From assembly GCF_048403405.1 (NCBI RefSeq), contig NZ_CP183129.1: a stretch of DNA of 64,000 nt. The stretch is one strand, 5' to 3'. Numbering within the stretch: position 1 is the first letter of the stretch; each line of letters opens with the position of its first letter. This document shows, piece after piece, positions 21,001-24,000 of the stretch. The stretch is from Escherichia coli (lineage in GTDB: Bacteria > Pseudomonadota > Gammaproteobacteria > Enterobacterales > Enterobacteriaceae). Position numbers: made by a program.

Positions 21001-24000
21001 GGGATGCCGACAAACTCGCGCAGCAAAAAACGCTTGCCTGGGAACACGCTTCAAGGCTTGTCGATCTGCTCAATTCCGTCGTGAATAATCCAGAGGGAGA
21101 ATAACAATGCAGTATACCCGGCTCGGTAAAAGTAACTTACTTGTTTCCCGCATCTGCATGGGATGCATGGGGTTTGGCGATCCGTCGACGGGTCAGCATA
21201 GCTGGACGCTGGACGAAACAGCAAGCCGCGACATCATTCGCTATGGCCTTGAAAAGGGCATCAACTTTTACGATACCGCTATAGCCTACCAGAATGGCTC
21301 CAGTGAGCGATACGTTGGCCGGGCATTACGGGAGATGGCGAAACGCGATGATATCGTCCTGGCCACCAAGTTTCTGCCGCGAACCCCCGCACAAATTGCC
21401 GGAGGGATCAGCGGAAAAGAGGCAATCGCTCAATCCCTTGACCAGAGCCTGAAGAATCTGGGGATGGACTATATCGACCTCTACATCTACCACATCTGGG
21501 ATTACAACACGCCCATTATCGACGTGCTTGAAGCGTTATATGCCGCTGTTACTGCTGGCAAAGTACGAGCTGTTGGTATTTCAAACTGCTATGCCTGGCA
21601 GCTGGCGAAGGCGAACGCCCTTGCTGAACGCGAAGGGCTGACGCCCTTTGTTTCCGTACAGAGCCACTACAATCTAATTATGCGCGAAGATGAACGGGAG
21701 CTCTTCGGCCTGTGCACTGAGGATAATATCGCAATGACCCCCTATAGCGCGCTGGCCAGCGGCCGCCTCTCTCGTAAAGAAGGCTATACACGGCGAGCCA
21801 CAGAGGATGACTATGCGCGTGGAAAATATGACAGCACGGCTGAACAGGATCGCAGCATTATTGAGCGTGTAGCCGAACTGGCCGAACGCCATCTGGTGTC
21901 AATGACGGAAATATCTCTCGCTTGGCTGCTGACAAAAGTCACATCACCTGTCGTAGGGGCTACAAAAAAAGCTCATGTCGATGGCGCGGTAAACGCAGTA
22001 AATCTTCAACTAAGTCCGGAGGAAATTCAGTTTCTGGAAGAAACCTACCAGCCGCATGTTCTGACGGGGATCATGGCGCAAAATACGCCGCAAACGAAAG
22101 ATGTTAAGCAGGTCTGGATGCGATAGCCCTTATTCACTTTTCCTCCTCTCGTCTTTGAGAGCGCCAGTAGCGGTCGGTTACGTTCTTACCAGCACCAGTT
22201 GATCGAACGTCTTAAACAGTAACGTCAGTAAAAAGATCATCGTGAAAAAGACTTTTATGCTTTTAATTTGCATGCTAATAAGCAGCCCTGTCTTTGCAAC
22301 AAAACCGGACGCGCCGAATAAGCCGGAGATGAATATCTTCGAGCTCGGCATCAGACCCGATCGGGACAACGACTTTGCAGACGTGGCCAGACAGACGATT
22401 TCCGCTTCGGTTGATCATGAAGCAGGTACACTGGCGATGTATGCCCTGCAACGCAGCGACAATTCAGGTCAGGCATTCATGTTCGAACTCTATGAAAATG
22501 AGCGTGCTTATCGCAAACATCTCAATGCCGCCCCATACAAAGCATTCGCTGCTCGTGCAGCTGACATTATTGACAGGAAGAAGAAAATTACCCTGGAGCC
22601 ACAGTTTCTGGGCGACAAACACATCATACCGAATGAACGAACTATCAATAATCTGGTGATCGTCGAAGTAAAGCCTGAATTTCAGAGCGAATTTAGAAAC
22701 ATCGTCCTTCCTGAAATGGTCGAGTCGCTCAAAGTAGAGAAAGGCGTGTTAGCCATGTATGCCGGTACAGATTCAGAGACTCCAAAACGCTGGTATTTCT
22801 ATGAGATTTACGCCAGTGAGGAGGATTATCAACTGCACCGACAAACGCTGCACTTCCTGGAATACCTCAGGCAAACGGCGCATATGAGCGCCAGGAAGGA
22901 CGCAATCCCGGTAAAACCGGTATTTCTTCGTAACAAAGGCGGAATCAAACAGGAGCCGCAACGTTGACCAGTAAGGATTAACATGAAAAGCGTACTTGCA
23001 GCAGCGGCTATGTCGCTTGTTATTTCTGATTTTGCCAATGCTGAGGAAACAAGAGGTAAAGCTATGATGAAAATAGAACCGTCAGCGATTTCGGAAGCTG
23101 ATATTCGTTCCGTCTCACCGGCTCTCGCGCGCTTTGGTCGCGAAGCTATTACTGAAGATCTGTGGACACGCGACGCCCTCTCACCGAGGGATCGTAGTGT
23201 GGTGACCGTCGCCATGCTGATTGCCCGCAACCAGCCTGCCGAGCTTAAGCACTATATTGACGTCGCTCTCGATAGCGGCGTGACGCCAGCGGAATTATCA
23301 GAAATCATTACCCATCTGGCGTTCTACTCAGGTTGGCCAAATGCAATGTCAGCCGTCAGCGTGACCAAAGCAGTATTTGAAACTCGTGGCGTCACGCCAG
23401 ATGCGCTTCCTGACACTTCTCCGGACCTGCTTCCTCTCAATCAGGAAGCAGAAAAGCAGCGTTCAGAGACAGTGGAAAAAAATGTTGGCCGAATATCTCC
23501 AGGCTTGGTTAAATTTACTGCTGACCCACTGTTCCTGGATCTCTGGCAAAGACCCGCGCTAACCCCCCGTGATAGAAGCCTGATTACGGTCAGCGCGTTA
23601 ATCGCATCTGGACAGAGCGCGCAGATTGGCTATCACCTTAACAGAGCGATGGATAATGGACTTTCTGCTGAGGAAGCTGGGGAGATCGTTACCCAAGCCG
23701 CGTTTTACGCTGGCTGGCCAAACGCATTTACCGCTGCTCCGGTTGTGGGAGAGGTGCTAAACAATCGATCATCGAGTAAAAGGTAACATTACTGAACACT
23801 AAAACCTGACGCACATCACAACATTAGAACGAACAGTTCATGAACCAATAAGCGTAACATCGAGTGATTTATGGACAGCGTTTAACACAGTTATGAACCA
23901 AAACTGAGTTCATAACTGTGAGTTTGAATCGCCATTTGATTAATATCCATTTAAAACAGTTTGTTATGCTGTTTCTGGTGCTGAAGTCAATTATGTATAT

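Follow-up and report, generated by a model that had tools for sequence, protein, structure and literature searches.

Two adjacent, predicted exported tandem-domain proteins of Escherichia coli, ABM-ABM and CMD-CMD, and their possible place in quinone and phenolic detoxification

We analyzed a 64,000-nucleotide (nt) stretch of an Escherichia coli chromosome (contig NZ_CP183129.1, assembly GCF_048403405.1; hereafter the window) and focused on two adjacent genes at positions 22242-23786. The first encodes a protein with two ABM domains (ABM-ABM), and the second a protein with two carboxymuconolactone decarboxylase domains (CMD-CMD). We propose that a mobile, LysR-controlled accessory operon of Enterobacterales ends with these two genes and that their products form the periplasmic end of quinone and phenolic detoxification, a reading to which we give an even chance. 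Its parts differ in strength. It is strongly supported that each protein is a single-chain pseudo-dimer of a normally dimerizing fold. Export of both proteins by the Sec pathway, predicted from conservation and a crude heuristic, is well supported. Both tandem architectures were already known from structural-genomics structures (3MCS, 3F44 and 4G9Q). What is new is the occurrence of exported, fused variants of known enzyme folds in an uncharacterized, mobile and partly decayed operon, probably for detoxification.

The internal duplication of ABM-ABM is evident at several levels. Pfam detects two ABM domains, and BLASTP aligns the two halves with each other (26% identity, E 7e-14). The AlphaFold2 (AF2) model has a mean predicted local distance difference test score (pLDDT) of 93, with low values in residues 1-27, and consists of two ferredoxin-like β-α-β-β-α-β halves. 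The full-length protein is homologous to the tandem-ABM crystal structures 3MCS (E 1.4e-24) and 3F44 (E 1.6e-19), on which the model superimposes with template modeling (TM) scores of 0.93 and 0.96, respectively. The tandem-ABM family comprises 519 representative clusters at E<=1e-3. The two Pfam CMD domains of CMD-CMD likewise match each other (43% identity, E 7e-32). Its AlphaFold model is all-helical, with a mean pLDDT of 84 and values <50 for residues 1-29, and superimposes on 4G9Q with a TM score of 0.94; the sequence match to 4G9Q is also strong (E 1.4e-73, ~50% identity). Both duplications had been proposed in a sequence-only reading of the window and are confirmed here by Pfam, half-versus-half BLASTP, the crystal structures and the model superpositions. 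The coordinates given in that reading were exact: 22242 is the GTG of ABM-ABM and 23786 the last base of the CMD-CMD stop codon.

The same reading had assigned N-terminal signal peptides to both proteins, which our analysis upholds. Both leaders have a positively charged n-region (MKK and MK), an uncharged hydrophobic core and a small-x-small cleavage motif (VFA before T, ANA before E). Leaders were scored with a crude home-made heuristic, with the fimbrial proteins in the window as positive controls and the cytoplasmic proteins of the gene cluster as negative controls. The fimbrial subunit, chaperone and adaptor scored 3.9-6.0, and the cytoplasmic proteins scored either nothing or 1.5-2.7; the scores of the pair are listed in Table 1. 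Among the homologues listed, the n-, h- and c-region pattern with its AxA motif is kept in 42 of 44 full-length ABM-ABM proteins and in 78 of 96 full-length CMD-CMD proteins. The leader sequence drifts across genera while the pattern stays, and most exceptions are alternative start calls. With these predicted cleavable Sec-type signal peptides, both proteins should act in the periplasm. The lack of Cys in the mature part of most CMD-CMD homologues (counts below) also speaks for export.

Across the representatives and 80 genome loci surveyed, the presence of the ABM-ABM leader tracks the type of cell envelope. Leaders are present in Enterobacterales, Neisseria, Eikenella, Pasteurellaceae, Acinetobacter and Fusobacterium, and the Gram-positive proteins (Streptococcus, Staphylococcus, Lactococcus and Coriobacteriia) are leaderless and begin at the first β-strand. 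The Fusobacterium gene behind 3MCS likewise encodes a signal peptide that is absent from the crystallized chain; therefore, 3MCS represents the mature exported form. The twin-arginine motif S/T-R-R-x-F-L-K was not found in either n-region, and the lipobox L-[AS]-[GA]-C was not found in either leader. The Cys in the LLIC segment of the ABM-ABM leader is not conserved (W, G, Y or F in orthologues), and the CMD-CMD leader has no Cys. Twin-arginine (Tat) or lipoprotein export of the pair was ruled out by the absence of these motifs. A CMD paralogue in Yersinia does carry a lipobox.

The operon context provides the basis for the proposed function. The region is chromosomal and is flanked by hipBA and a ydeQRST-type fimbrial operon, and positions 20400-24600 are 100% identical to strain 4621 and others. 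In strain 4621, RefSeq annotates a divergent LysR gene and, on the + strand, genes for a 103-amino-acid (aa) hypothetical protein, a DJ-1/PfpI protein, an aldo-keto reductase (AKR), three amidohydrolase fragments, an NAD(P)H-dependent oxidoreductase, a second AKR, a 'putative quinol monooxygenase' and a 'carboxymuconolactone decarboxylase family protein', followed by an AraC-type fragment and fimbrial genes. The name 'putative quinol monooxygenase', given to ABM-ABM, is a family-level guess. ABM-ABM and CMD-CMD are encoded on the same strand, and the 15-nt gap between the stop of the first and the start of the second holds the Shine-Dalgarno (SD) sequence of the second. None of 200 shuffled sequences folded as stably as the hairpin downstream of CMD-CMD, and its tail is weakly T-rich. 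The hairpin could be a terminator marking the transcript end or a repeat element; a terminator scan did not include it among its predictions, and promoter and terminator scans of the region gave counts not above those for shuffled sequence.

Table 1. Features of the ABM-ABM/CMD-CMD region, in window positions (ORF, open reading frame)
Feature	Position	Strand	Evidence
Divergent LysR-family regulator gene, truncated to 143 aa	17005..17436	-	comparison with strain 4621
First genes of the cluster: 103-aa protein (no family), DJ-1/PfpI protein, 315-aa AKR	17572..19602	+	co-occur in orthologous loci
Amidohydrolase_2 gene, fragmented (pseudogene in E. coli)	19705..20381	+	three short annotated ORFs
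KefF-like NAD(P)H (quinone) oxidoreductase gene, cytoplasmic product, Flavodoxin_2 fold	20532..21104	+	NCBIfam KefF E 5.9e-44, below curated cutoff
AKR gene, 339 aa, directly upstream	21107..22126	+	ORF
Remnant of a deleted exported Flavodoxin_2-like gene (last ~27 codons and TAA)	22140..22222	+	alignment to Rahnella L005
ABM-ABM gene, 241 aa, GTG start, stop included	22242..22967	+	ORF, Pfam 2xABM
Predicted Sec signal peptide of ABM-ABM, residues 1-19, MKKTFMLLICMLISSPVFA, cut before TKPD	22242..22298	+	heuristic score 5.5
First ABM domain, residues 32-104	22335..22553	+	Pfam PF03992 E 4.7e-11; β-α-β elements, AF2
Second ABM domain, residues 141-209	22662..22868	+	Pfam PF03992 E 8.2e-12
SD sequence AAGGA of the CMD-CMD gene, 5 nt before ATG	22973..22977	+	read from sequence
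CMD-CMD gene, 267 aa, ATG start, stop included	22983..23786	+	ORF, Pfam 2xCMD
Predicted Sec signal peptide of CMD-CMD, residues 1-20, MKSVLAAAAMSLVISDFANA, cut before EETRGK	22983..23042	+	heuristic score 4.9
Internal SD-like AAGAGGT (23051-23057) and ATG of Met28 (23064-23066)	23051..23066	+	conserved in 11/12 enterobacterial genes
First CMD domain, residues 54-129, with ...SEIITHLAFYSGWPNA motif	23142..23369	+	Pfam PF02627 E 7.4e-17
Second CMD domain, residues 176-255, with ...GEIVTQAAFYAGWPNA motif, His->Gln	23508..23747	+	Pfam PF02627 E 2.6e-18
Strong hairpin ~90 nt past the CMD-CMD stop	23878..23932	+	RNA fold -23.7 kcal/mol, z -5.6

The cytoplasmic enzymes of the operon would handle reactive aromatics and carbonyls. 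They are the KefF-like quinone reductase, the two AKRs, the DJ-1/PfpI protein and a hydroxybenzoate-decarboxylase-type amidohydrolase. The intact 349-aa amidohydrolase of Rahnella (locus L005) has no NCBIfam match, and it matches LigW (5-carboxyvanillate), γ-resorcylate, 2,3-dihydroxybenzoate and salicylate decarboxylases, which make up the non-oxidative hydroxybenzoate decarboxylase group. With a quinone reductase, two carbonyl reductases, DJ-1 and a decarboxylase-group amidohydrolase, the operon reads as a defense against phenolic acids and against quinones and carbonyls that arise from these acids. The quinone/quinol theme of the sequence-only reading fits this gene content. ABM and CMD families need no organic cofactor or NAD(P)H. 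Sec export moves unfolded chains, and the periplasm has no NAD(P)H; the cofactor independence of the two families thus suits both the export route and the compartment. ABM-ABM may be an O2-dependent, cofactor-free oxygenase or a tautomerase acting on a quinol, hydroquinone or polyphenol. CMD-CMD may be a non-thiol, PcaC-like decarboxylase or a lactone isomerase, with a carboxylated ring-derived product as substrate. The two proteins could jointly neutralize phenolic and quinone toxins from plants or the gut, either before these cross the inner membrane or afterwards.

The E. coli quinol monooxygenase YgiN, together with the quinone reductase MdaB, offers a parallel. YgiN resembles ABM-ABM in its ABM fold, its RefSeq-style name, its independence of cofactors and its gene position next to that of an NAD(P)H quinone reductase, and ABM-ABM has the same type of linkage through the KefF-like Flavodoxin_2 gene, which is present in this operon and in 33 of 50 Gram-negative loci. 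In contrast, YgiN is a single-domain cytoplasmic homodimer, whereas ABM-ABM is a fused tandem with a signal peptide, and its neighboring reductase is KefF-like rather than MdaB. By analogy, ABM-ABM may be an extracytoplasmic counterpart of the MdaB/YgiN pairing of a reductase with a quinol monooxygenase. The mdaB and ygiN genes are co-transcribed (PMC2653508), and for their products Adams and Jia 2005 (PMID 15613473, as cited in PMC8765430) proposed a quinone redox cycle. In Pseudomonas putida, outer-membrane vesicles have been reported to carry aromatic-catabolic enzymes, including 4-carboxymuconolactone decarboxylase (reviewed in PMC8256616).

Comparison of the 50 Gram-negative ABM-ABM loci, from a genome scan that used an 8-sequence alignment, shows which genes accompany the pair. 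A KefF-like Flavodoxin_2 reductase is a neighbor in 33 loci, a LysR regulator in 28 and the 315-aa AKR in 20. An adjacent CMD-CMD gene was found in 11, all of which belong to the orthologous enterobacterial LysR cluster, where CMD-CMD directly follows ABM-ABM with the exception of Yersinia artesiana. Elsewhere ABM-ABM occurs with LysR, a Flavodoxin_2 quinone reductase and AKRs, and without CMD-CMD. CMD-CMD also occurs without ABM-ABM. In Klebsiella, a signal-bearing CMD-CMD is found in two layouts: LysR / 102-aa protein - Flavodoxin_2 - AKR - CMD-CMD, and LysR - exported Flavodoxin_2-like protein - CMD-CMD - exported cyclophilin-like protein. Rhizobium has it either in the vicinity of LysR, flavodoxin and DJ-1 genes or as a fusion with a cupin. 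The sequence-only reading took the linked pair for a module; a dedicated linked module is not borne out: CMD-CMD adjoins ABM-ABM in only this minority of the loci, and each occurs without the other. Judged by gene content, the locus is a LysR-reductase core with interchangeable exported accessories. ABM-ABM and CMD-CMD are probably independent accessories of this core, not obligate partners.

Other exported proteins recur around these genes. In Rahnella, Enterobacter, Pantoea and Yersinia, up to two extra leader-bearing genes (DUF1330-like and Flavodoxin_2-like) lie between the second AKR and ABM-ABM. A KefF-like Flavodoxin_2 protein (L005 7382-7981; L082 6383-6979; L008 7325-7957) has an apparent Sec-type leader without a conserved twin arginine and is often encoded beside ABM-ABM. 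Its sequences in Enterobacterales, Pasteurellaceae, Eikenella and Propionivibrio share 67-95% identity. Coupling of CMD-CMD to an exported cupin also recurs. In Yersinia (L008 13316-14604), a lipoprotein CMD-CMD is encoded beside a signal-bearing cupin that scores above the NCBIfam '(R)-mandelonitrile lyase' cutoff, and Rhizobium leguminosarum (L086 5001-6200) has a signal-CMD-CMD-cupin fusion. The 103-aa product of the first gene (17572-17883) gave only a faint Pfam match, to YCII (E 0.34). This gene is kept in the LysR clusters of Enterobacterales and Pasteurellaceae and also in Klebsiella, and it is present at >=50% identity in 12 of the 50 loci.

The distribution of the locus suggests mobility. 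Of 5426 complete E. coli genomes, 462-496 (~9%) carry the two genes together, so the locus is accessory. Synonymous divergence (dS) from the Rahnella and Enterobacter copies is merely 0.25-0.38, and copies are found on Enterobacter and Chimaeribacter plasmids. Together these findings point to recent horizontal spread. Many of the hosts are plant-associated (Pantoea, Pectobacterium, Dickeya, Erwinia, Rahnella, Rhizobium and Ralstonia). Compared with E. coli GPEC403-625 (L089), the ABM gene has 2 nt differences and the adjacent CMD gene 24 (dS 0.106). This mosaic divergence suggests a recombination breakpoint between the two genes. At the edges of the island, positions 24201-24455 hold an annotated partial pseudogene, the C-terminal piece of an AraC-type regulator, and the upstream region 9271-16490 encodes a 1806-aa 'ECSE_1600 family' autotransporter and the hipBA toxin-antitoxin pair. 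We take the AraC-type fragment to be yneL of K-12, a strain in which hipA and this fragment presumably have no LysR-to-CMD island between them.

Several points weigh against a role of the pair at the periplasmic end of quinone and phenolic detoxification. The NCBIfam scan of all cluster proteins gave no match above a curated cutoff, for ABM-ABM and CMD-CMD as for the others; because no model reaches its cutoff, the proposed chemistry is taken from superfamily and gene neighbors. Isomerases (LsrG), heme-degrading enzymes and non-enzymatic stress proteins have ABM folds as well. A periplasmic quinol oxygenase that works with a cytoplasmic reductase requires its substrate to cross the membrane. 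Some close relatives of CMD-CMD are leaderless (4G9Q and those at L093-L095), so export is not essential to the chemistry of the family. Finally, the operon is decaying in E. coli. The LysR gene, 16537-17436 when intact, has an internal deletion of ~352 bp here (at ~17054-17057). In every best-matching complete E. coli genome among the matches listed it is undeleted, so this deletion looks private to the strain or the assembly. The amidohydrolase gene is reduced to a pseudogene. The ABM gene is preceded by a 116-bp 'intergenic' stretch (22127-22241) that is a deletion scar; relative to Rahnella L005, ~952 bp are missing, which encode a leader-bearing DUF1330-like protein and most of a leader-bearing Flavodoxin_2-like protein. 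The SD sequence of the ABM gene is weakened, and in ETEC4077 the LysR and CMD-CMD genes are both frameshifted.

These lesions raise the possibility that in E. coli, and above all in this strain, the pair has become a silent relic as its island decays. Here the system is probably impaired, with a truncated regulator, a pseudogene amidohydrolase, two exported genes lost and a weak ABM SD sequence. Given the LysR deletion, the broken amidohydrolase and the ETEC4077 frameshifts, the pair may be poorly expressed or vanishing in part of the species, and its presence in only a small fraction of complete genomes fits this. However, 462 E. coli genomes carry both ORFs intact and at 95-100% identity. 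Within E. coli, CMD-CMD has a nonsynonymous divergence (dN) of 0.0075 against a dS of 0.106, and basal expression may persist even when a LysR activator is lost. A relic is possible but on balance doubtful, and this reading overlaps with the detoxification one, which concerns the ancestral function.

The proteins could also be non-catalytic, as periplasmic binding or stress proteins of the dimeric α/β-barrel 'stress-responsive' type. Many ABM-like and dimeric α/β-barrel proteins have no known activity, no catalytic residues could be assigned in the pair, and the structural-genomics homologues are unannotated. The conserved polar residues of the family are nevertheless retained in both halves of both proteins: E60, E82, Y84, H93, E166, E188 and H199 in ABM-ABM, and RDRS, E104, E107, H111 and H218 in CMD-CMD. 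The pair also sits among enzymes in the operon and is under strong purifying selection, with dN/dS ratios against orthologues in other genera of 0.15-0.29 for ABM-ABM and 0.03-0.10 for CMD-CMD. We consider a non-catalytic role improbable.

If the hydrophobic N-termini were artifacts of wrong start choice, both proteins would be cytoplasmic. RefSeq (WP_000909115.1 and relatives) starts ABM-ABM at ATG 22272, inside the leader, which yields a 231-aa protein and drops the n-region and half of the hydrophobic core. Database versions of the protein are 241, 236, 231 and 212 aa long, some CMD-CMD entries (240 aa) begin at Met28, and the ribosome site before the GTG of ABM-ABM is mutated to a weak AAAAGA in E. 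coli. In contrast, the GTG is conserved in 13 loci of different enterobacterial genera. It sits 3-15 codons past an in-frame stop, and an AAAGG(A/T) ribosome site precedes it at the proper distance; the downstream ATGs show no conservation across these loci. The conserved GTG and AAAGG site indicate that the 231-aa call is wrong and cuts off the signal, and that the GTG at 22242, chosen in the sequence-only reading, is the correct start. The 212-aa forms ('MNIF...') were considered as natural signal-less variants and ruled out, since the GTG and the full leader lie in frame upstream. In addition, the signal-peptide features persist in distant taxa despite different leader sequences, and the CMD-CMD leader has a good SD sequence and an ATG. 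A cytoplasmic location of the pair is very improbable. If this assignment of the start holds, a systematic RefSeq start error, which hides the ABM export signal in hundreds of E. coli genomes, would be corrected.

The sequence-only reading had suggested, as one option, a peroxide-handling function. In a periplasmic peroxide or thiol-redox module, CMD-CMD would be AhpD-like and ABM-ABM would act in support. The CMD superfamily includes AhpD, and AhpD structures are among the weak fold matches of CMD-CMD (E ~0.6-2). However, the whole 267-aa CMD-CMD protein contains no cysteine, so the CxxC motif of AhpD is absent and the peroxide role lacks support. The mature part is Cys-free in 106 of 120 homologues, the best matches are PcaC-type models and 4G9Q, and no thiol-redox partner is encoded nearby. 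The sequence effectively refutes this module, which we give almost no probability, and an AhpD-like role of CMD-CMD was ruled out for want of cysteine.

The remaining alternative, that CMD-CMD is the canonical PcaC of the β-ketoadipate pathway acting in protocatechuate catabolism, has an equally negligible chance: its best NCBIfam matches are PcaC and PcaDC models (E 5e-34 to 7.5e-37) and 4G9Q was deposited as a '4-carboxymuconolactone decarboxylase', but the score against the PcaC equivalog TIGR02425 is 117.1 bits, to which both domains contribute, against a cutoff of 155.7, no pcaB, pcaD, pcaGH or pcaIJF genes are present in the cluster, and CMD-CMD is tandem and predicted to be exported, unlike PcaC. 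To our knowledge, E. coli has no β-ketoadipate pathway. CMD-CMD as a true PcaC was thus ruled out by its score and by the missing pathway context.

Comparison with characterized and structurally known relatives places the two proteins more closely. PcaC and AhpD are the two characterized types of the CMD family and share the CMD fold with CMD-CMD. The CMD-CMD halves are nearer to PcaC-type CMDs than to AhpD and share the PcaC-like E...H...Y.G.P motif region. CMD-CMD differs from PcaC in its score below the cutoff, its lack of pca context, its predicted export and its duplication, and from AhpD in the lack of CxxC, the predicted export and the duplication. 4G9Q, from Sinorhizobium meliloti, has the same two-CMD architecture and shares the conserved motifs, but its native N-terminus (MTTSNAGAQQ...) lacks a signal peptide; no published function was found for it. 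For ABM-ABM, 3MCS (FN1347 of Fusobacterium) and 3F44 (Lactobacillus acidophilus) are full-length relatives but merely 25-26% identical, and 3F44 is a leaderless Gram-positive form. Both are without known function, so they define the fold and not the chemistry. The phospho-AI-2 isomerase LsrG has the ABM fold, is cofactor-free and acts on a diketone. Unlike ABM-ABM, it is cytoplasmic, single-domain and encoded in the lsr operon. The LsrG equivalog NF007791 is the sole NCBIfam model matched by ABM-ABM, with 57.7 bits (E 1.2e-15) against a cutoff of 135.

The CMD-CMD gene contains a start-like site within its own coding sequence. Met28 lies eight residues past the predicted cleavage site and is near-universal in leader-bearing homologues, although its segment is predicted to be disordered. 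AAGAGGT(G/A) precedes its ATG at optimal spacing in 11 of 12 enterobacterial CMD-CMD genes. Synonymous codon identity peaks at codons 21-26 (0.94 vs 0.49, rank 1 of 259 windows), but the ABM control gene shows a conservation peak of similar height. AGA codons are common in the CMD-CMD gene of E. coli-like alleles, which weakens the rare AGA codon as proof of an internal SD sequence; the synonymous-conservation peak is more telling. Some homologues start at the Met28 position. In Enterobacter soli the leader is absent, in Aeromonas caviae a degenerate leader is closed by a stop, and in one lineage of 46 sequences an intact leader is directly followed by a nonsense codon. This pattern suggests one of two roles for the Met28 site, that of another initiation site, which would yield a cytoplasmic isoform, or that of an SD-like pause element. 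In the former case, translation from the first ATG would give the exported protein and translation from the Met28 ATG a signal-less cytoplasmic one. A single gene could then equip both the cytoplasm and the periplasm with the same cofactor-free enzyme. We tentatively extend this to a broader proposal, which we think has less in its favor than against it. The CMD-CMD gene would have two starts, for an exported and a signal-less form, and the pair would be part of a so far undescribed set of small Sec-exported enzymes that are combined in varying ways and form the periplasmic arm of LysR-controlled quinone and phenolic defense operons. Such a set would include tandem ABM, tandem CMD, KefF-like Flavodoxin_2, DUF1330, cupin and cyclophilin-like proteins.

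Full-text literature searches found no study of either protein, in agreement with the sequence-only reading, which had not recognized the pair as a characterized module. The nearest matches were unrelated CxxC-type CMDs, a Pantoea onion paper and a Novosphingobium ABM protein without a cleaved signal. If our reading of the pair is true, Enterobacteria, Neisseria and Pasteurellaceae would place cofactor-independent oxygenase-like and decarboxylase-like enzymes in the periplasm against quinones and phenolics, a compartment rarely considered for such chemistry. A dual-start CMD gene, if real, would be a compact bacterial example of dual localization. Two large 'family-only' annotations would also gain a testable context.

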